NCBI GenBank assembly: GCA_049296855.1
Contig: JBAQTF010000014.1
Coordinates: 1-55,159 of the forward strand
Source of the DNA: Minisyncoccia bacterium
Lineage (GTDB): Bacteria > Patescibacteriota > Minisyncoccia > Phycocordibacterales > DATDWN01
Direction of reading: 5' to 3'
DNA length: 55,159 bases
The notes under the pieces are model-generated. The model did not search any database. It was given only the letters and a program-made list of their open reading frames with translations, and was not told the DNA's origin. The position numbers and the translations under genes are program-made. Within the stretch, counting starts at the first letter, position 1. Each line of letters starts with the position of its first letter. This document shows positions 2,159 through 55,089 of the stretch, piece after piece.

Positions 2159-2569
2159 TTACTTCAAAGTTACCTTGCCACCAGCTGTTTCAATTTCCTT
2201 TTTAAGTTTCTCTGCATCTTCTTTCTTCATTCCTTCTTTTAACATTGAAGGAGCAGCATCAACTAAATCTTTTGCTTCTTTAAGACCTACACCTAGAGCC
2301 TCCTTCACTATTTTTATAATAGCAATCTTTGTTGCTCCACCTTCTGTAAGCTCAACGTTAAATGTTGATTTCTCATCTGCGCTACCCACTACTGCACCTC
2401 CTGCTGGAGCGCTAACCGCAACCGCTTGGCTAGAGACACCGAATTTTTCTTCTAAATGTTTGACCAACTCGTGCAAATCCAAAACTGACATTTTATCTAT
2501 TGCCTCAACTACAGACTTAAATTTCGCTGGAGTTTCTACGCTTCCTTTTTCTTTTGTTGTTTCTACCAT
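2159..2569 (-). CDS. rplL: 50S ribosomal protein L7/L12
   Basis: C-terminal KIAIIKIVKEALGVGLKEAKDLVDAAP...KEDAEKLKKEIETAGGKVTLK. Confidence 0.95.
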   Translation of the reverse strand: MVETTKEKGSVETPAKFKSVVEAIDKMSVLDLHELVKHLEEKFGVSSQAVAVSAPAGGAVVGSADEKSTFNVELTEGGATKIAIIKIVKEALGVGLKEAKDLVDAAPSMLKEGMKKEDAEKLKKEIETAGGKVTLK

Positions 2570-2635
2570 GTTTTTAATTTTAATTGTTAATTTTATCGTT
2601 TCTTTCGCCTCGGATTACCTCGGCATAAGTGTATG

Positions 2636-3127
2636 CTACGCTCCCTTAGATTTTGCGATCTGATCCAATGCCATTACAAAACCTTGTATTGGTGAGTTAA
2701 TAAGATTAACAAACTGTGCTTGTAGTGTTTTAAGGGAAGGAATTTGTGAGATGACAAGCATTTCTGCTTGATTCATAAATTTGTTCTCAAACACTCCTCC
2801 GACAATCTGTATCTTCTTATCAAGTTTTTTTTGAAATGTATAGACTTCACGTGCCCCCTCTATAGGATCAGTACCATAGACAATACCTAGTTCCCCAGGC
2901 AAGGTCGGCATGTCCCCAGTTATACCCCCGAGAGCAAGGGCCTTTCGAGTTAAAGATTTTTTGGCAACTGTGTAGCCGATTCCTTTTGCTCGTAGGGCTT
3001 TTCTAATAGTAGATGACTCTGTTACAGGCAGAGCGTGGAAGTTTATAAACACCATCGAAGCTGAATCTTTTACTATCTTTTTTAGTTTAGACAGAATCTC
3101 TCCTTTCTTTTCTTTTGATATAGCCAT
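2636..3127 (-). CDS. rplJ: 50S ribosomal protein L10
   Basis: 163-aa ORF directly upstream of rplL with L10-like sequence (MAISKEKK..., VFINFHALPV...). Confidence 0.9.
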   Translation of the reverse strand: MAISKEKKGEILSKLKKIVKDSASMVFINFHALPVTESSTIRKALRAKGIGYTVAKKSLTRKALALGGITGDMPTLPGELGIVYGTDPIEGAREVYTFQKKLDKKIQIVGGVFENKFMNQAEMLVISQIPSLKTLQAQFVNLINSPIQGFVMALDQIAKSKGA

Positions 3128-3544: not shown

Positions 3545-4219
3545 TTATTTTAGCATATCTTTAAACTCGAGAAGGGTTGGATCGTTTGGAATTTTTGAAA
3601 GACCTTGATCAACTATAGCTTTTGCTTTCGCAGTACTTTTAAATATATCTCTATAAACCTCGGCTAACTGGGTATAAAGATATGACTCTGTTGGTGCCTT
3701 CTCAATTGCCATTTTGTAATACTCCTCAGCCATACCGTTGTCCTTTATGAAATAGGCGTAAAGATTGGCGATGTTCGCGATAGAAACAAAATCTTTTGGA
3801 GCTATTTTACCTGCATATTTCCAAGAGATCAGAGCTCCTTCATAATCCCCACCAAGCTTCTGATACATGGCCAAATCCATCCAGCCTGGAAAATACATGG
3901 GGTCTTTTTTTAGTAGAGCTTGGAACTCTTTTATCTTTTGTGTAGCAATCAAACTATCGTTCTCTGATGGGTTAGCCATAGATGACCTGACTAGATACCT
4001 ATCTAGATCTGGTATAGGTTTTGGAACTTGACTGACTTTTTCGTTTGTCACATTTTCTACTTTATAAGTAACACCTGTTGTAGTAGCAACTTTAGTGACA
4101 GTTAATTGTTCATCATTCATAGCTTTCTTTGACTTTAGATCAAAAGCTATATAGCCAATGACTAAAACTACGACTACTGTAGAACTTGCAATCATTTTGT
4201 GTTTTCTCGTAATCTGCAT
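3545..4219 (-). CDS. Membrane-anchored TPR-repeat protein
   Basis: N-terminal TM helix followed by TPR-like repeats (YEGALISWKYAGKIAPKD, AEEYYKMAIEKAPT). TGTTAAAAT lies 6 nt upstream of the ATG. Confidence 0.7.
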   Translation of the reverse strand: MQITRKHKMIASSTVVVVLVIGYIAFDLKSKKAMNDEQLTVTKVATTTGVTYKVENVTNEKVSQVPKPIPDLDRYLVRSSMANPSENDSLIATQKIKEFQALLKKDPMYFPGWMDLAMYQKLGGDYEGALISWKYAGKIAPKDFVSIANIANLYAYFIKDNGMAEEYYKMAIEKAPTESYLYTQLAEVYRDIFKSTAKAKAIVDQGLSKIPNDPTLLEFKDMLK

Positions 4220-4458: not shown

Positions 4459-7400
4459 TTAGTTTGCTCGTGTCCAAGTTTGAACTGGGAAGTCTGTGTT
4501 GGATGGGAATCCAGGCAGACCGTATCCGTTTACCCAGTCAAGTTGTAATTGTGAAGCTGCTGTAGCAACTGGAGTCGTTGTTGAGAACGGTGACCAGATG
4601 ATGTTATCTGTAGCAGCAGAACCAGCTTCAACTGAAGTTACTGTACCCATTAGATACTGTTGTGATCCAAATGAAGTATCAGCCAAGAGAGCAAGACCTA
4701 TTGTCTCTGAAACTGAAGCAGTATCAACAGCTGTTGTAGCCTTCAAGATGAAAGTCTTTGTGCTATTTGCTGGAACTATCTGTGCATTAGATGTGCCTGT
4801 ACCGACTAATTCGATAAAGGTTTCACTAGCTACTGTAGAAGTTGAGTTGTTAAACGCAATTCCATCCCCATATAGAACGAAGCCGTTTGTGCTTCCTCCT
4901 GATGTAGCAATTGAGAATGTGAATTTCTGGAATACAACATCTCGATTGTTAGGGTTTGTAACTGTGAATTTGTACAAATCACCTCCTGCAGCCAATGTTC
5001 CACCATTGCTTGTTACAGCAATTGTAGGAACTGTTCTGAAGATTCTCTGACCGTTTGAAGAAACAGCACCTGTAGTACCTCCACTAACAGTTACTTGTGA
5101 ATCATTTCCTGTAGCGTAGTTACCATTTAGTCCGTTGTTGTCTCCGTTGTAATTAACAGTCAAGAATGCTCCTGGTGTACCTTCGTTAATGTTCTGAGCT
5201 GATAGATCACCCTTAACTGTAATCAATACTGACTCACCTGCAGCTATCATAGGAGCAGGAGAGAGTAATGTTGAAGTAGCGTGATCTGGACTAGCACCTC
5301 CAAACTGAGCAGAACCAATCATAGTTGCACCATTGTATAGGTACACTTTCTGACCGACTAGATCAGCTGGTGAGTTTGAAGCTGTGTTTCCAAGAACTAG
5401 AGCGATTTGTTTCAAGTTAACTGCTTCTGAAGCACCTGCTGTAAATCGGAATCTAGCTAGTTCTGAACCTGTAGATCCAGCCTGAGCTACTTTGTAAAGT
5501 AGAGCTGAATCGTTTGTAACTGTGTAAGAACCACCTGTAGAAGCTGTCATTATCTGACCAGCAGCTGCAGTCATTGTCTCTACTATTGTCAAACCTGAAG
5601 TTACTCCAGTTGCACCAGTGTAGGCTGACGATAGATCAGTCAAGCCCCATGTGATGTTTCCTGATGTAGCACTAGCAGAAACGTTACACTTCAATGATAT
5701 TGTCTTTGAAGTACCTTTTGGAACAACAAATCCTCCACTGTTAAATGTGAATGTGTTATCACCAAGGGCTACTGTAACGTTTGTAGCGTCTGTCAAGTTT
5801 GTCGTACCGTCATACAATCCACAGCTTGAAAGCATTGAAGCTGTAACTGTTGTCAAAGCAAGAAGAGGTTTGAATGTTGATAGTCTAACATCTTCTCCTG
5901 ACTGACCTGCATCAAGTGTGTATCGTGCGAACTCAAATCCTTGAGCTCCTGCGATAACTGATCTTGCTGTAGGTTGTGTAGAAACACTGATAGCCAATGC
6001 ACCAGCTCGAACTGTCATCAAGTTTCCTTGAACAGATGAACTAAATGTTGACAAATCAACTGTGTCTCCTGTTGATTCACCTGTTGGAGTTGACCACTGT
6101 GAACTAGGTGTTGTTGAAGCCTGAACTGAGTCTCCAGATATGAAGTCAGAACTTAGTCTACCAACAAGTTTTAGAACTGTAGTACCAACTGGGAATGTTA
6201 CTGAGTCACCAAATGTGACTGTTCCTGATTGAGCTGCACCTGACCCATCCTCTGGACCAGCTAACACAACACCATTTTGGTTAACCAATTTGATGTTTGT
6301 AATGTGTGCAACTGTATCACCGACAGCAGTAATGTTGAATACCATTTGCTGAACAGTCATAGGTTCACCGCTGAGTTTAACTTCAAATCCACCTAATGGT
6401 TGATCTGCAACTAAAACAGCAATGTTCTGAGCAGCAACAGTGTTTGATTGAGATATGGTATTTGCTACACCAGCTGTGATTGTTACGTTAGAAGCGTTGT
6501 ACCAAGGTGTAGTTGTGTTAAATCCTGTTCCTGTTGAAGCAGGAGTGATTCCGTAACCATAAGTTTCACCTGTTAGGTAAAGATCTGTTGATTTATAAAG
6601 ATCAAAAGATACTTGTCTGTTTGTACCACTAACTATATCACCCTTGATAGAAACTTCTTTTGACAAACCTTCTGCAATAAGAATTCCACCAGGGAATGAA
6701 GCTGAGTAGTATTTACCATCAGAAGAAACCATTGTGTCATATGCAGTACCGTCAACATAAACCTTTACGTTAGCAAGGTCTGATGCCGAAGCTGAACCTG
6801 ACTGATTCCATCTGATAGACCATAGTCTTAGATCTTCACCTGAACCAGCATCAACTTTAACAGAAGAAAATGTGTAGTTTGTTGTACCAATTTCCTTGTT
6901 AGCAGTTGTGTTTGGATCAAGAGAACCTCTAGAAGGTGTTGAAGCTCCTAGTGATAAGTTACTATTCAATGTATGTGATGCTCCTGAGATAGGAAGTGAG
7001 CCTGAAACTGATGCTGAAGTGTTAACTGCAACAACATTTAGACCTGCAACCTGACCAGTATGAGCAGCCATAAGAGCAGCAGTTGTCATGTTACCAGCAA
7101 CAGTCAAAGTCTGAGATGTTCCAGCTTTAACAACAAATGGTTCACCGACTACGGCTTGGTCATTTGAGTTAATAGTTCTTGAAACTCCGATTTGTGTGCC
7201 GTCGCTCTTTAGAAGAACAACGCCAGCAAAAGCGGCATTATCTGCTAGACCTACTCGCTGTACTGTGACTGAATTAACTGTGACATCGCTTGCTCCAGCT
7301 GTAACTACGAACCTTGTGAAAGGAACGCGTGCTGCTGTCGCAGGTGCGAGTGAGTTAACAGGTTGTGAACCAGCCATTACTGACAAAGCACCACCTTGTG

Positions 7401-29700: not shown

Positions 29701-30624
29701 ATGGACCCGAAGTATCTACCATACGAGAATCGTCAACCAAACACTCAGTACAAGAACCGTCTGAGTTCTATCCTGAAATGTATCAAAAGGCAGGATATCT
29801 TCACGAAGAATCCGTTCCAGACACAGGGCCGTTATAGTGTGAAGACTCTCAGTCCAATGGTTTTAAAACTCTCAAACGGATTCCCGATCGGAACCGAACG
29901 TAACATGAAGATGTTCTGGGTAACACCAATCGGAGAGCTCCTCGCGTTCATTCATGGAGTTCGTGATGCTCGTGTCCTTTCCGAAGAGTGGGGTGTGAAG
30001 TGGTGGCTCAAGCAGTGGGCCACACCTGAAAAGTGTGCTGACTTTGGACTTGAACATCCAGATATGGGACCGGGCTCCTACGGTGGAGCCTTCGAATACG
30101 TTGCACCAGATGGAACAACGTACAATCAGTTCAAGGAAGTACTGAAACAGATGAGAGATCGACCAGATGTGACGACTCACAAAATCACGAGCTGGCTTCC
30201 TCATTACACAATCGGCCATAACGGGAGACAACGAAAAGTCATCGTGGCGCCGTGTCACGGAGACATCGAGATGTACATCGTCAACGGCCGACTGACACTT
30301 CGGATGGATCAAAGATCTGCCGACTTCCCGATTGGAGTTCCGTCCAACACAATCCAGTACGCTGCGCTCACCATCATGATCGCACATGTACTCGGACTCG
30401 AACCAGACATGCTGATCCACTCAACACATGACAGTCACTTCTACGAAGACCAGCTCGAAAACGTCAGAGAGTTGGTTAAGTGTCCGACCTACCGGTACCC
30501 AAGTGTCTACCTGACTGAGGAAGGTCAGAAAGTAACAGACCTCTTCGATTTCAGACCGAGTCACTTTAGACTCGAAGATTACCACCCTGGACCAGCGATG
30601 AACAAAATCCCTGTTACGACCTAA
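29701..30624 (+). CDS. thyA: Divergent thymidylate synthase (ThyA family)
   Basis: Catalytic APCH, QRSADFPIGVPSN (uracil-specifying Asn retained), HDSHFY. The N-terminal DRTGTGT motif is not recognisable. Confidence 0.8.
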   Translation: MDPKYLPYENRQPNTQYKNRLSSILKCIKRQDIFTKNPFQTQGRYSVKTLSPMVLKLSNGFPIGTERNMKMFWVTPIGELLAFIHGVRDARVLSEEWGVKWWLKQWATPEKCADFGLEHPDMGPGSYGGAFEYVAPDGTTYNQFKEVLKQMRDRPDVTTHKITSWLPHYTIGHNGRQRKVIVAPCHGDIEMYIVNGRLTLRMDQRSADFPIGVPSNTIQYAALTIMIAHVLGLEPDMLIHSTHDSHFYEDQLENVRELVKCPTYRYPSVYLTEEGQKVTDLFDFRPSHFRLEDYHPGPAMNKIPVTT

Positions 30625-30639
30625 GCTCTTTCGACCAAG

Positions 30640-30675
30640 CAGGTCGCCCCGAAATCCGAGGCGACCTGTTTTTTT
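30640..30675 (+). terminator. GC-rich rho-independent terminator after thyA
   Basis: caggtcgcc-ccgaaatccga-ggcgacctg followed by ttttttt. Confidence 0.85.
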
Positions 30676-30698
30676 ATTAATGGTAATGAATTTAAAGA

Positions 30699-30776
30699 CA
30701 GAAGTACTCCTGTGGTGCGACCTAAATTTCTTGAGCAAAGCGATTAGAAATTGGAAGTACTCTTGTGATGCCGGAC
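30699..30776. repeat. Family-3 repeat (two cores flanking an aatttct...agaaatt hairpin) inside the high-GC island
   Basis: cagaagtactcctgtggtgcgacct (30699-723) and ggaagtactcttgtgatgccggac (30753-776). The rc aligns with 49495-49555. Confidence 0.7.
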
Positions 30777-30823
30777 TTGTTTTTTTATAAAAAAATGATA
30801 GAAATAGGTTCAGAGAGGTACAA

Positions 30824-31285
30824 ATGGCCAAAGTAAAGCTAGACAACTCTAGACATCCGGAACAACGAGAAAGAATGGAAGAGCTCGTTCGAACCGGACA
30901 GTGTCACTTCTGTAGAAAAGGATTCGAGGACCGGCATAAAGCACCGATCATCCACGAGACTGACCATTGGTTCGTTACTGCAAACAACTTCCCGTACCAA
31001 GGTAGTGTTCACCACCACCTGATCGTTCCCAAAATCCACATCACGAGATTGAGAGAACTTGGGAACGAGGCTAGGATTCAGTTGTTTGATGTCCAGGCCT
31101 GGCTTGAGGATTATCTAGGTACCACTGGATCATCAACATTTGTCAGGTCTGGAGATATGGATCTGACTTGTGCGACACTTGATCATCTGCATTTTCATCT
31201 GATTGTTGGGGAGAGAAAAGTCGGTGACAGTCCCAACCAGCTTGAAGATCTTATCCTCGTTCCAGTCGGTTACAAAAAGAAATGA
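30824..31285 (+). CDS. HIT-family (histidine triad) nucleotide hydrolase/transferase
   Basis: C-terminal LDHLHFHLIVG (HxHxHxx) and N-terminal CHFC. Confidence 0.8.
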   Translation: MAKVKLDNSRHPEQRERMEELVRTGQCHFCRKGFEDRHKAPIIHETDHWFVTANNFPYQGSVHHHLIVPKIHITRLRELGNEARIQLFDVQAWLEDYLGTTGSSTFVRSGDMDLTCATLDHLHFHLIVGERKVGDSPNQLEDLILVPVGYKKK

Positions 31286-31325
31286 AGAGAGCCCGGCCGC
31301 GCTATTGCGCGGACCCGGGCTCTTC
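31285..31325. terminator. GC-rich bidirectional hairpin between convergent genes
   Basis: gaagagagcccggccgcgc-tatt-gcgcggacccgggctcttc. It overlaps the last codons of the 31302..32150 CDS. Confidence 0.7.
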
Positions 31326-32150
31326 TACTACCTGAACAATCTCTACTCCGTTTGAACGTAAAACTTCTTGTGCATTCAAAACAGAGTAGCCTTCTTGAAA
31401 GAACACTCGCTTGACACCAGCGAAAGCGATTTCTCGTGCACAATCTTCGCACGGGAAAGTGGTAACGTACAGGAACGCACCTTTGAGTGTAAGCCCGTAC
31501 TTTGCGCAAAGAGCAACTACTGCTCGCTCTGAGTGCAAAGAAACGTACTTACCCTTTTGGCCCGCATCCACGTTCAATCGTGGATCACCGAAAATGTACG
31601 TTTCGTACTCGTTCGGCATGTGAGTGTTACAGGCAACGGCCAGAAGATTACCTTCATCGTCAAACGCTGATGCAGCTATCTGACGCCACCAATCTGGACT
31701 CTCTAGGGATTTGGTCTTAGTAAACCGCATCCGCAAATTATCCAAAACGGAATTGCTGACCACTACGTCGGCAATGACAGGCTGTTCCTTGTGAACCGCC
31801 GTCATATCCCATCTCGCCCAAATCATTTCGAAAGTCGATTTGGCGTGAGCAGGATTGATGTATCGTTCAGTGACAGCATGCGACACGTCTTCGTCTGGCA
31901 AAATCCAGTCCCAATCCGCCGGGCGGAGATATTCAGGATTGAATATCGTTACACCCTGAACGAGACGAGTAGATTGAATGATCTCCAACATCATATTTGT
32001 TGGAAGAGCAACAATATTACGAGCAAGTCTCGGAATCAGTTGCTCTGCCATTTCTTGTGATATCAGAAACAACACACTCTCCTTGTGCCTCTTGAACCAG
32101 TCCAAATGACGCTGGTTCAAGACCGGAATGTAGGCAATGAGGTTGCTCAT
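31302..32150 (-). CDS. Two-domain protein: unknown N-terminal domain (about 150 aa) fused to a dCMP/cytidine deaminase zinc-binding domain
   Basis: C-terminal LHSERAVV (H-x-E) and TFPCEDCAREI (PCxxC). The N-terminus MSNLIAYIPVLNQRHLDWFKRH is not recognised. Confidence 0.8.
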   Translation of the reverse strand: MSNLIAYIPVLNQRHLDWFKRHKESVLFLISQEMAEQLIPRLARNIVALPTNMMLEIIQSTRLVQGVTIFNPEYLRPADWDWILPDEDVSHAVTERYINPAHAKSTFEMIWARWDMTAVHKEQPVIADVVVSNSVLDNLRMRFTKTKSLESPDWWRQIAASAFDDEGNLLAVACNTHMPNEYETYIFGDPRLNVDAGQKGKYVSLHSERAVVALCAKYGLTLKGAFLYVTTFPCEDCAREIAFAGVKRVFFQEGYSVLNAQEVLRSNGVEIVQVVEEPGSAQ

Positions 32151-39697: not shown

Positions 39698-39787
39698 AAG
39701 GAACTAGTATAGCACAAAGTTTCTCACTTACTTCCGACTCCATTTATCTTACTTAAGGCAATTTTTGTCTTAACTAAAAGCATATTT

Positions 39788-39942
39788 TGGGTGGCTACTG
39801 GGAGATTCGACCCTTACATGGTCAGTACCCTAATTGGATATTTTATTTCGTAAACTCATAAAATATCTCAATCGGGCTTCGACTCCAGCCGTAAGTGCTC
39901 CCAGCACTTACTTAGCCACATAAAATAACTTCGTTATTTTTG
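39788..39942 (-). ncRNA. tRNA-trailer structured element (His copy), tRNA-like closing stem
   Basis: Lies directly 3' of tRNA-His. It ends in a 17-nt exact copy (39788-804) of the tRNA 3' end (39941-57). The 5' GUGGCUA pairs with the 3' UAGCCAC. Homologous to 45333-45483 and 51015-51158. Confidence 0.7.
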
Positions 39943-40014
39943 GGTGGCTACTGGGAGTCGAACCCAGACAGAGAGCTCCACAAGCTCGCGTGCTACCGCT
40001 ACACCATAGCCACC
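39943..40014 (-). tRNA. tRNA-His (GUG) with encoded G-1
   Basis: Hand-folded cloverleaf: G-1 opposite discriminator C, anticodon loop UUGUGGA, T-arm CUGGG-UUCGACU-CCCAG. No encoded CCA. Confidence 0.9.
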
Positions 40015-43199: not shown

Positions 43200-43359
43200 A
43201 TAACCACTAGAGCAGTATATGTGAATTCTGACTTTATTTCAAACTAAAAAACCCTTGCATGGCTAGTATACCTTTTTGATTTTTATTCGTTTAACTCAAA
43301 AAAATCTAAAGAAGGTATTAAGAAGTGACAGAGGTCACTTCTTACCTTTCGGATGATTT

Positions 43360-45258: not shown

Positions 45259-45332
45259 GCGGGATTAGCTCAGTTGGTTAGAGCAATTCATTTACACTGA
45301 ATAGGCCGGGGGTTCGAGTCCTCCATCCCGCA
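45259..45332 (+). tRNA. tRNA-Val (UAC)
   Basis: GCGGGAU acceptor, anticodon loop UUUACAC, T-arm GGGGG-UUCGAGU-CCUCC. Confidence 0.92.
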
Positions 45333-45483
45333 CAAAAAGCCGAAGGGCTTTTGTGGGTGATGAGAAAGTGCTGAGAACACTTTCGTGAGGATTCGAAGCC
45401 TGAATGAGATATTTTACGAGCTTTGCGAAATAAAATATCCAATTGGGATACTGAGTCTGTAAGACTCGAGTCCTCCATCCCGA
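45333..45483 (+). ncRNA. tRNA-trailer structured element (Val copy)
   Basis: Starts with hairpin aaaagcc-gaag-ggctttt and ends in a 17-nt exact copy (45466-82) of the tRNA-Val 3' end (45314-30). Homologous to the His and Arg copies. Confidence 0.7.
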
Positions 45484-45508
45484 ACCTTAATAAGTAAATT
45501 TAAAAAAT

Positions 45509-50942: not shown

Positions 50943-51014
50943 GCTCTCGTAGTTTAATGGATAGAATGTTGGCCTGCGAAGCTGGCGATCCAGGTTCGAT
51001 TCCTGGCGAGAGCA
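50943..51014 (+). tRNA. tRNA-Arg (GCG)
   Basis: GCUCUCG acceptor, anticodon loop CUGCGAA, T-arm CCAGG-UUCGAUU-CCUGG. The anticodon stem has three G.U pairs. Confidence 0.75.
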
Positions 51015-51158
51015 CTAAAATTGACGTTCGGAAATTTTGTGCTCCGCAGAAAGTCATGGGACGACTTTCGCTAGGAATCGAAAACCTTTGATAGTTTTTT
51101 AGACAAAAAACAGAAAAGGTGTACCGTTCCTGTAAGGAAAGATTCCTGGTGAGAGCAC
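51015..51158 (+). ncRNA. tRNA-trailer structured element (Arg copy)
   Basis: Ends in gattcctggtgagagcac (51141-58), a copy of the tRNA 3' end (50998-51015) with 1 mismatch. The 5' GUGCUC (51039-44) pairs with GAGCAC (51153-58). Same hairpin order as the Val and His copies. Confidence 0.65.
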
Positions 51159-51176
51159 AAAATTTTTTCCTGATAC

Positions 51177-51202
51177 TAAAAAACCGTGAGCCACGGTTTT
51201 TT
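51177..51202. terminator. Bidirectional terminator (rpsT side and tRNA-Arg side)
   Basis: aaaaaaa-ccgtg-agc-cacgg-tttttt. Confidence 0.75.
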
Positions 51203-51204
51203 GA

Positions 51205-54859: not shown

Positions 54860-55089
54860 AATTAGCCGAGATTAGTTGGACTTTTTGTGTTTTTCTGTTA
54901 TATTTCAAAGGTTAGATTAATGGACAAAAGTCTTTGGATAATCAAAGCAAAGTCCTGGATAGTTTTGTTTTCGTCAAAACAAAACTTCCTCGGACCCTGG
55001 TCTCGCTTGTTTTGCTTGGTAGCAAAACATAGCTCCGACCCGCAAAAGTTCTAAAAAAATTAAAGTAGTTTAATTTTTTAAGACATTTT

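Follow-up and report, generated by a model that had tools for sequence, protein, structure and literature searches.

Which kind of genetic element occupies the roughly 150 nt directly behind the tRNA-Val gene of a Minisyncoccia bacterium, and why does it end in a copy of the 3' end of that same tRNA? The DNA concerned is a stretch of 55,159 nt (GenBank assembly GCA_049296855.1, contig JBAQTF010000014.1, positions 1 to 55,159 of the forward strand), referred to below as the window. A first-pass annotation, made from the sequence alone, had described a conserved structured element at this place, with relatives behind the tRNA-His and tRNA-Arg(GCG) genes, and its main observations were reproduced. 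A hairpin aaaagcc-gaag-ggctttt followed tRNA-Val directly, and tcgagtcctccatcccg was found exactly twice in the window, at 45314-45330 within tRNA-Val and, as an exact 17-nt copy, at 45466-45482, with about 110 nt between the small hairpin and the copy. Homologous elements lay behind tRNA-His and tRNA-Arg(GCG) in the same relative position and orientation. The three could be aligned along their full length, and a strict shared-motif pattern had three matches in the window, which were these elements, compared with zero in 100 shuffles. In each of the three copies, 17–25 nt of the tRNA end were repeated in direct orientation. These data support a conserved, structured and undescribed element that is tied to tRNA 3' ends and has locus-specific ends tracking the local tRNA. 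Comparative patterns suggest, with a probability that we judge to be about even, that it represents a new family of non-coding, structured, non-autonomous insertion elements of Patescibacteria that target the 3' ends of tRNA genes.

Conserved fold and distribution of the element

A pattern scan of 185,579 prokaryotic species, each represented by one genome, retrieved 47 loci, all in metagenome-assembled genomes (MAGs) of the Patescibacteria group, with hosts among the Saccharibacteria, Paceibacterota/Parcubacteria, Kaiser-, Zambryski-, Nomura- and Taylorbacteria, Minisyncoccia and Elulimicrobium. With a covariance model made from 50 cores, the window and these loci together yielded 87 matches at E ≤ 1. 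Another 18 loci came from a metagenome scan with the 3' end of the window tRNA-His as query, and after their addition there were 65 matches at E ≤ 1e-10, again all in Patescibacteria MAGs. The element was non-coding, measured about 130–170 nt and left the tRNA intact. Forty-one of the 65 copies lay within 100 nt 3' of a tRNA on the same strand (1.5% expected by position), and a further 10 were the second to fourth units of tandem arrays behind a tRNA, with three units in locus L034 and four in L001. The position relative to a tRNA could not be assigned for six copies at a locus edge, and eight copies had no recognisable tRNA, some of them retaining a remnant of a tRNA 3' end. In this set, 25 tRNA species carried the element.

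The 65 aligned copies shared a fold of four helices. P1 (9 bp, loop UGGGA) was paired in 97% of cells, with compensatory changes at all 9 pairs. The long-range helix P2 (8 bp) and the AU-rich hairpin P3 (8 bp) that lies inside it were paired in 91% and 90.5% of cells, respectively, and both covaried, while P4 (5 bp, loop UGUAA) was paired in 99%. Overall, 94% of cells were paired and compensatory double changes were present at 28 of the 30 pairs; none of 500 column shuffles attained the observed values, and sliding the registers by 1–3 nt lowered pairing to 37–48% of cells. By the covariation criterion, the element is a conserved structured RNA/DNA motif. The search for further copies and covariation that the first-pass annotation had proposed thus bore it out, and three of its hairpins, which correspond to P1, P3 and P4, were upheld on the larger set. 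Near-invariant features were the two loop sequences (UGGGA and UGUAA), the GGGUAC joiner and the length of P1. G.U pairs were common, with 19 at a single P2 pair, and since these would read A.C on the opposite strand, the folded strand is the tRNA-sense strand, either as RNA or as single-stranded DNA. Differences among all pairs of close copies comprised 15 compensatory, 2 one-sided and 8 disrupted cases, and those among the six closest pairs 7, 1 and 0.

No counterpart of this motif was found among described RNAs or mobile DNA. When searched against Rfam 15 (4227 models, among them those for ribozymes, tRNA-like RNAs, tmRNA, YrlA, HEARO/omega RNAs and group I/II introns), only the tRNAs passed, and even at E ≤ 10 no model overlapped the elements of the window, designated type I, or the sister type II elements of loci L060 and L007 described below. 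Models for tRNA, tRNA-like structures (TLS) and tmRNA, in particular, did not match the element. A hammerhead, hepatitis delta virus or hatchet-like ribozyme core was not seen by eye, the P1 junctions being only 1–2 nt. There were no matches among IMG/VR viral contigs, INPHARED phages or PLSDB plasmids, and the full-text literature search returned no description of such an element, in agreement with the first-pass annotation, to which no described bacterial element of this architecture was known.

Antisense and sense copies of the tRNA end

The unit is ordered as tRNA end (T-A-R), a hairpin (hp0), an arm A', a linker A, P1, GU, a second arm T', the core (P2 around P3, GGGUAC and P4) and the direct copy of the tRNA end. 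The T-A-R part runs from the T-loop through the 3' strands of T-stem and acceptor into the trailer. T' has the consensus G-U-N-N-G-G-A-n-U-C-G-A-A and is the reverse complement of positions 54–64 of the preceding tRNA. A' comprises the 8–14 nt 5' of P1, is the reverse complement of tRNA positions 66–73 plus the first trailer nucleotides, and often continues unbroken into the 3' arm of hp0. Together, A' and T' form an antisense copy of about 20 nt of the 3' third of the tRNA, split at 65/66 by a cassette A-[P1]-G-U; in the sister-type copy of locus L031, P1 is missing and the two arms form a single perfect antisense stretch of 22 nt. At the Val locus of the window, positions 54–73 of the tRNA are the stretch that the element repeats in antisense and in sense.

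This arrangement replaces one module of the first-pass annotation, which had placed a small hairpin with a UCGAA loop 3' of P1 and had proposed a mimic of the tRNA elbow. There is no such helix in the consensus. The 3' half of the module supplies the 5' strand of P2; the partner of this strand is ..CAAUUGGG.., and P3 lies within the helix. The 5' half of the module (NNGGAnUCGAA) is the reverse complement of positions 54–64 of the cognate tRNA. Judged from this complementarity, the module and the segment 5' of P1 are to be read as an antisense copy of the tRNA 3' end. The elbow mimic is not supported, as the UCGAA hairpin dissolves into T' and P2 and the acceptor copy is absent from 18 of the 31 first-in-array copies. 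The locus-specific closing pairs of the earlier description (GUGGCUA/UAGCCAC at His, GUGCUC/GAGCAC at Arg, a weak pairing at Val) were as stated.

The arms were specific to their own locus. The cognate tRNA matched A' and T' far above other tRNAs (Mann-Whitney p ~1e-16 for each arm) and was top-ranked in 26 of 31 elements. Nine acceptor positions were made informative by a G.U pair or a mismatch; A' copied the 5' strand at one of them and was Watson-Crick complementary to the 3' strand at the other 8. As A' complements the 3' strand, the discriminator and the trailer, the element is not a duplicated tRNA with an insert. The mismatches of T' were 5 of wobble type and none of A.C type, while those of A' (8 wobble, 8 A.C, 19 transversions) look neutral.

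The direct copy at the other end of the unit begins in the T-loop, at about position 57–60, and at least 14 copies contain an extra A-Y dinucleotide after UCGAn. Its length ranged from about 5 to 25 nt: the copy extends to the discriminator in 10 of the 31 first-in-array copies, including all three in the window, and is partial in the rest, 18 of which stop abruptly after the T-stem strand. That the element terminates in a copy of the host tRNA 3' end is therefore true of the window copies and is not a constant of the family. The hairpin hp0 was also of more than one kind. A CGAAG loop, which in the form d(GCGAAGC) is an unusually stable DNA mini-hairpin, was present in 9 of about 33 hp0 hairpins, where fewer than one was expected, and it accompanied full tRNA-end copies (Fisher p = 0.02). 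The remaining hp0 hairpins resemble ordinary intrinsic terminators, as do the hairpins behind element-free tRNAs.

Such paired inverted and direct copies could be by-products of template switching during replication or repair at two palindromes, namely the terminator hairpin of the tRNA and the T-loop sequence TTCGAA. Fold-back at the terminator would make an inverted copy ending at position 54, a switch at TTCGAA would make the direct copy, and the core and P1 would have spread among loci by gene conversion or transformation-mediated recombination. Several features are consistent with this scheme: the inverted copy adjoins hp0 without a gap, takes in the locus-specific spacer and invariably ends at U54; the beginning of the direct copy is in the T-loop; A' complements the 3' strand, as templated copying predicts; the L031 copy has contiguous arms without P1; and most hp0 hairpins are like ordinary tRNA terminators. 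However, template switching leaves unexplained why almost every copy has P1 placed within the templated arm, at 65/66, why a conserved core of 75 nt lies exactly at the switch point, why a 2-nt AY insertion is frequent at the junction and why the element is restricted to Patescibacteria, and hp0 differs between near-identical strains. We regard it as improbable.

Variation among relatives and candidate explanations

Several metagenome loci were syntenic with the window, with about 70–85% nucleotide identity across kilobases, and allowed the same tRNA genes to be compared. Behind tRNA-His genes that are 100% identical, a type I element was found in the window, L048 and L050, a type II element in L052 and L060, and no element in L065; near-identical tRNA-His genes of L055, L059 and L063 were also without an element. 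L050 and L052, which carry type I and type II, respectively, are collinear and their flanks resume at the same point. Type II elements have the front part (hp0, A', P1, T') and a P3-like AU hairpin in common with type I and differ in their 3' core (AGAC.GAG...GAGUCnGGGUCG...UGACC). P1 is present in the type II copy of L060 and absent from those of L052 and L031, and type II can also trail a type I core as a composite. In these relatives, tRNA-Val and tRNA-Arg(UCU) likewise had type II elements behind them. In L060, at about 5520-5650 on the minus strand, a type II core lies upstream of tRNA-Val(UAC) and is bordered by a direct repeat of the first 10 nt of the tRNA (GCGCGGTTAG), which implies that the superfamily is able to occupy tRNA 5' ends too.

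Comparison of individual copies pointed to exchange of parts. The core of the window His copy was 93–94% identical to that of a tRNA-Cys copy in another MAG, with wholly different arms, which suggests re-targeting. L028 and L029 were identical in the upstream flank, tRNA-Glu, A' and the whole core, and had unrelated hp0 hairpins. L008 and L046 differed at one position in 217 nt upstream and at nine in the core, including three compensatory pairs, and were unalignable downstream of the element. From these alignments, hp0 and the core appear to have been exchanged as modules.

The variation in presence, absence and type at identical tRNA genes, together with the arrays and the decayed or orphan copies, amounts to mobile-element-like behaviour, and tRNA genes are classical landing pads of mobile DNA. 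To our knowledge, every known tRNA-gene occupant brings or borrows a sequence-specific integrase. In the insertion reading that we favour, a unit with one copy of the tRNA end would enter in Campbell fashion, by recombination within the T-loop-to-acceptor segment that it has in common with the tRNA gene. Insertion would rebuild the tRNA and push a partial copy downstream, repeated insertion would give tandem arrays, and recombination between the direct repeats would lead to precise loss of a unit. In single-stranded form, whether as a transcript or as tRNA-sense single-stranded DNA (ssDNA), the antisense arm would fold onto the sense copy of the tRNA end, so that the element becomes rod-shaped, with a stem that replicates the target as a duplex or serves as a guide for it, and the P1–P4 fold may be the part recognised by trans-acting machinery.

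A number of observations count against this insertion reading. The case for mobility consists of comparative patterns only, and the empty tRNA-His sites were in rearranged contexts, so that none of them formed a clean pair with a filled site between identical flanks. The loci examined contained neither a recombinase, transposase or reverse transcriptase linked to the element nor a free or circular form of it. The 18 short direct copies are not what simple Campbell insertion into an intact tRNA gene would give unless a deletion followed, and the insertion reading does not account for the re-matching of A' and T', on either side of an inherited P1, to a new tRNA. The predominance of compensatory changes among close copies indicates continuing selection on the fold, and known repeats of the MITE (miniature inverted-repeat transposable element) or REP (repetitive extragenic palindrome) type are less elaborate than this multi-helix fold, in which the loops and the P1 length are fixed. 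The conserved fold suits a functional RNA at least as well as an insertion element.

Such a functional RNA would be a non-coding transcript made together with the tRNA. Once freed from the 3' trailer, its A' and T', between which P1 would project, would base-pair either with the cognate (pre-)tRNA over its 3' third or with the tRNA-end copy of the element itself. It might serve in 3'-end processing, folding or quality control, titrate the tRNA, or act as an acceptor/T-stem minihelix mimic for tRNA enzymes, of which RNase P, RNase Z and the CCA-adding enzyme are examples. In favour are the sense-strand fold with its orientation fixed to the tRNA, the mainly compensatory differences between close copies, the wobble-type mismatches of T', and the conserved P1 length and loops. 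So is the strong terminator past the Arg element, which makes tRNA-Arg(GCG) and this element look like a single transcription unit; the terminator probably marks where that unit ends, or else is the displaced original terminator of the tRNA. The tRNA-His-plus-element transcript has an unusually stable predicted fold (z = -6.9) in which A' and T' pair with the tRNA's own 3' third, and the element alone is predicted to close via A' on the acceptor copy (z = -5.1). Nevertheless, presence, absence and type vary at identical tRNA genes of close relatives, copies lie behind only three or four of the seven tRNA genes that ARAGORN called in the window, and arrays and decayed copies exist, none of which is expected of a needed partner RNA. 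At most loci the terminator-like hp0 stands between tRNA and element and would limit their co-transcription. The mismatches of A' look neutral, its pairing runs through the discriminator and trailer, so that the closing stem is no canonical RNase P or RNase Z substrate, and the tRNA-end copy is often shortened. A guide for pseudouridylation of the H/ACA kind was considered and set aside as unlikely, since the unpaired junction nucleotide N65 is not conserved as U. A functional RNA is the main rival of the insertion reading, with a clearly smaller share of our confidence.

The direct repeats could also be plain att scars of integrase-mediated islands or prophages, or the elements could be degenerate tandem tRNA duplicates. 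Two classical traits of tRNA-targeting integrases are indeed present, namely direct repetition of the tRNA 3' end from the T-loop onwards and accretion-like arrays. The first-pass annotation had named integrase genes and island DNA at homologous loci as a test of this possibility, and the outcome was mixed: the polymorphism of presence and type, the arrays and the decayed copies were there, but integrase, island or cargo genes were absent from all 47 + 18 loci, with only about 130 nt of non-coding DNA between the repeats. An all-against-all clustering of 678 open reading frames (ORFs) from the 47 loci found no protein family in more than four loci, and no ORF-bearing autonomous version was present within the 65 loci examined. 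The same structured core stood at 25 tRNAs and was under structural selection, and A' is the complement of the tRNA 3' strand and trailer and not a copy of the 5' half. The reading as att scars or tRNA duplicates is thus largely refuted and very improbable.

One scaffold behind at least 25 tRNA species, with arms matched locally, means either that the target is chosen by base pairing or that the target is copied into the element. A bolder form of the insertion reading, which we think unlikely, takes the first course and proposes a mobile element without any protein of its own, programmed by base pairing, in which the antisense arm of about 20 nt, split by P1, would guide the choice of tRNA gene or pre-tRNA. 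The unit would be recombined in by host or trans-encoded machinery, and a changed arm would re-target the scaffold to any tRNA. An element propagated through RNA has also been considered. Here, the unit transcript would be cut by tRNA-processing enzymes at the discriminators of the tRNA and of the tRNA-end copy, possibly circularised to a viroid-like rod, copied back to DNA and recombined into tRNA genes. In arrays, one unit gives way to the next at a tRNA 3' end, each unit forms a rod of high self-complementarity folded on the sense strand, and transcription from tRNA genes is strong. Against this, there was no linked reverse transcriptase, no self-cleaving ribozyme motif and no match to viral contigs, and the complementarity continues into the trailer encoded in the genome instead of CCA, which rules out the mature tRNA as the partner. 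We consider this route quite improbable.

On the features tested, the element fits no known family. Among short repeats, MITEs, REPs and bacterial interspersed mosaic elements (BIMEs), the palindrome-associated transposable elements (PATEs) derived from IS200/IS605, and the Rickettsia palindromic elements are likewise short and protein-less, repeated both inside single genomes and across them, hairpin-rich, variably present and prone to decay. Unlike these, the present element has no family-wide terminal inverted repeats, its ends differing by tRNA and its direct repeats being variable in length, and no short fixed target duplication; its ends are specific to the target tRNA, it has a four-helix fold with fixed loops and strong covariation, and it is located only at tRNA gene ends. 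With tRNA-targeting phages, integrative and conjugative elements (ICEs), genomic islands, tycheposons and the integrase-less cis-mobilizable elements (CIMEs), it shares the site at the tRNA 3' end, the intact tRNA, the direct repeat starting in the T-loop, the tandem arrays and the occupied and empty sites in relatives. It differs from them in its size of about 150 nt, the lack of genes and of a nearby integrase, and the internal antisense copy of the att sequence, and one core at 25 or more tRNA species is beyond what one integrase could serve.

Integron attC sites and the CTX-phage attP, with its two inverted dif-like sites, also have inverted copies that fold into a target-imitating hairpin, with structure conserved over sequence, strand-specific folding and arrays of units between which core sites lie. 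Of a folded-ssDNA recombination site of this kind, the element displays the strand-specific fold, seen in its G.U excess, and the inverted-copy design. In contrast to these, the target here is the tRNA T-arm/acceptor and not attI or dif, there are no cassette ORFs, and the element is not known to involve IntI or Xer. A structured scaffold with an exchangeable target-complementary segment is also found in the bridge/seek RNAs of IS110/IS1111, in TnpB/IscB omega RNAs and in the exon-binding and intron-binding sites (EBS-IBS) of group II introns. The element, however, has no adjacent recombinase or nuclease gene at any locus examined, as the IS110 bridge-RNA arrangement would have, and no Rfam match; it carries a sense copy of the target as well, and its guide is about 20 nt long, split by a hairpin and complementary to a single strand. 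Finally, the element recalls a group of tRNA-like and tRNA-linked RNAs, comprising viral TLS, mascRNA, the tRNA-like domain of tmRNA, YrlA, the archaeal cis-acting C/D guide in the tRNA-Trp intron and H/ACA guides with their 'omega' topology, by its acceptor-like closing stem that uses a tRNA 3'-end copy, by a hairpin between two target-pairing segments, as in H/ACA pockets, and by its physical link to the target tRNA. Compared with these RNAs, the element has no supported T-loop/D-loop elbow, its stem pairs through the discriminator and its tRNA-end copy is often shortened, and it is without the lower stem, ACA box and conserved target U of H/ACA guides.

There is a substantial chance that the element is categorically new, either as a guide-programmed insertion element or as a tRNA-specific partner RNA. 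If mobile, it would select its sites by a new mechanism and offer programmable insertion a compact template from nature. Under the guide reading, it would unite guide and donor in one miniature, re-programmable natural cassette and form a class of mobile element that is new and confined to Patescibacteria. If it is a functional RNA, it would be the first bacterial family of tRNA-specific antisense or partner RNAs and would hint at how tRNAs mature in the reduced Patescibacteria. Under both views, a widespread and strongly covarying motif is missing from Rfam, the annotation of Candidate Phyla Radiation (CPR) genomes is affected through spurious partial tRNAs, and the element marks rearrangement hot spots beside tRNA genes.

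Features of the window and side observations

The positions of the three copies and of the other features are compiled in Table 1. The tRNA-Val, tRNA-His and tRNA-Arg(GCG) genes were confirmed by Rfam at 58–72 bits, and the direct copy at His has a 2-nt insertion after TCGA. Two further remnants had been missed by the first-pass annotation. A degenerate fourth type I copy, in which P1, P2/P3 and P4 are still recognisable and the UGGGA loop and T' are gone, sits between rplS (L19) and tRNA-Leu and is not joined to any tRNA 3' end; in relatives, the tRNA-Leu/tRNA-His segment is relocated or inverted with respect to the L19 flank. The other remnant is an orphan 3' module of type II, which is located some 40 nt upstream of tRNA-Lys and runs on the strand opposite to it.

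Table 1. Positions of the elements, their parts and associated features (in the window unless a locus is named).
Feature	Position	Strand	Remarks
tRNA-Val(UAC), intact	45259..45333 (end 45332/3)	+	ARAGORN, Rfam 72 bits
hp0, Val copy	45334..45353 (hairpin 45335-45352)	+	A-tract, stem aaaagcc, loop gaag (CGAAG mini-hairpin type), stem ggctttt
A' and linker A, Val copy	45353..45363	+	antisense of tRNA-Val acceptor 3' strand, discriminator and trailer, partly decayed
P1 hairpin, Val copy	45364..45384	+	GAAAGUGC-UGAGA-ACACUUUC
G and T', Val copy	45385..45397	+	UGAGGAUUCGAA; antisense of tRNA-Val positions 54-64
P2 around P3, Val copy	45398..45451	+	long-range helix around AU-rich hairpin, then conserved GGGAUAC
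P4 hairpin, Val copy	45453..45467	+	GAGUC-UGUAA-GACUC
Direct copy, Val copy	45466..45485	+	tRNA-Val from T-loop to acceptor 3' end; 17 nt exact, then g[a]ac
tRNA-His(GUG)	39942..40013	-	ARAGORN, Rfam
His copy	39785..39941	-	covariance model 102 bits
hp0, His copy	39941-39922	-	
A', His copy	39919-39913	-	GUGGCUA
P1, His copy	39911-39891	-	
T', His copy	39889-39878	-	
P2/P3, His copy	39877-39825	-	
P4, His copy	39823-39809	-	
Direct copy, His copy	39810-39785	-	
tRNA-Arg(GCG)	50943..51015	+	ARAGORN, Rfam
Arg copy	51016..51164	+	covariance model 89 bits
hp0, Arg copy	51016-51038	+	
A', Arg copy	51039-51046	+	
P1, Arg copy	51049-51069	+	
T', Arg copy	51071-51082	+	
P2/P3, Arg copy	51083-51124	+	short P3, core subtype B
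P4, Arg copy	51126-51140	+	
Direct copy, Arg copy	51141-51164	+	
Strong intrinsic terminator	51177..51203	+	just 3' of Arg element
Degenerate fourth type I copy	43248..43343	-	covariance model 29 bits, E 3e-5
Orphan 3' module of type II	~54952..55050	-	..GAGACCAGGGUCCGAGGAAGUUUUGUUUUGACGAAAACAAAACUAUCCAGGAC..; E 6e-5
Type II copy, L052	3735-3913	-	
Type II copy, L060	1620-1793	-	
Type II copy, L031	3890-4000	-	
Type II copy, L007	830-990	-	
Type II copy, L050	7047-7195	+	
hp0, L028	6150-6195	-	differs from L029
hp0, L029	5717-5750	-	differs from L028

The neighbours of the elements in the window were all housekeeping genes. Pfam analysis of 20 neighbours in the window identified an ABC transporter, an M16 peptidase, L19, a pseudouridine synthase, UppS, a DinB-family protein, PilM/PilN, RuvX, RuvA, Fpg and a SpoU methylase. 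That the Val element might be connected with the DinB-family gene was considered and then given up, since relatives have sister-type elements at the same tRNA. Other candidates were rejected as well. An own promoter of the element was not supported, with 40 sigma-70-like matches against 38.5 expected, which is background level. An ssDNA element bound to the lagging strand was discarded because orientation follows the tRNA and not GC skew, the His copy being on the minus strand and the Val and Arg copies on the plus strand. A second, degenerate tRNA copy within the element failed the test between 5' copy and 3' complement, and ARAGORN and Rfam called no tRNA there. Concerted evolution within a genome was set aside, same-genome pairs having an identity of 0.62 and random pairs one of 0.60.

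Positions 30001-32000 of the window had a G+C content of 0.48, compared with about 0.36 elsewhere in the window, and contained no rRNA or other Rfam family. The tRNA-His gene of the window and the identical genes of relatives, with or without an element, end in ..CCACCCA, one C short, while several tRNA-His genes without an element (L055, L059 and L063) encode a complete CCA end (..CCACCCCA).

At two loci, L043 (about 2450-2720, minus strand; Gly-CCC) and L026 (about 3633-3790, plus strand; Leu-CAG), the intact tRNA was followed by a second, 5'-truncated tRNA-like copy with the same anticodon. The truncated copy starts in the D-loop, contains between this loop and the anticodon stem a hairpin that resembles P1 and has UGGGA or CGGGG as its loop, and is followed by hp0 and an element whose A' matches the truncated copy. 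L043 contains a third partial tRNA copy with a different hairpin, and the arrangement at the two loci looks like successive replacement of tRNA 3' parts. Lastly, a tRNA that ARAGORN called in a Parcubacteria MAG (L016, 4187-4260, plus strand) carries a type I element and has the anticodon UUA, which would read UAA; it may be a suppressor or recoding tRNA, or a miscall.

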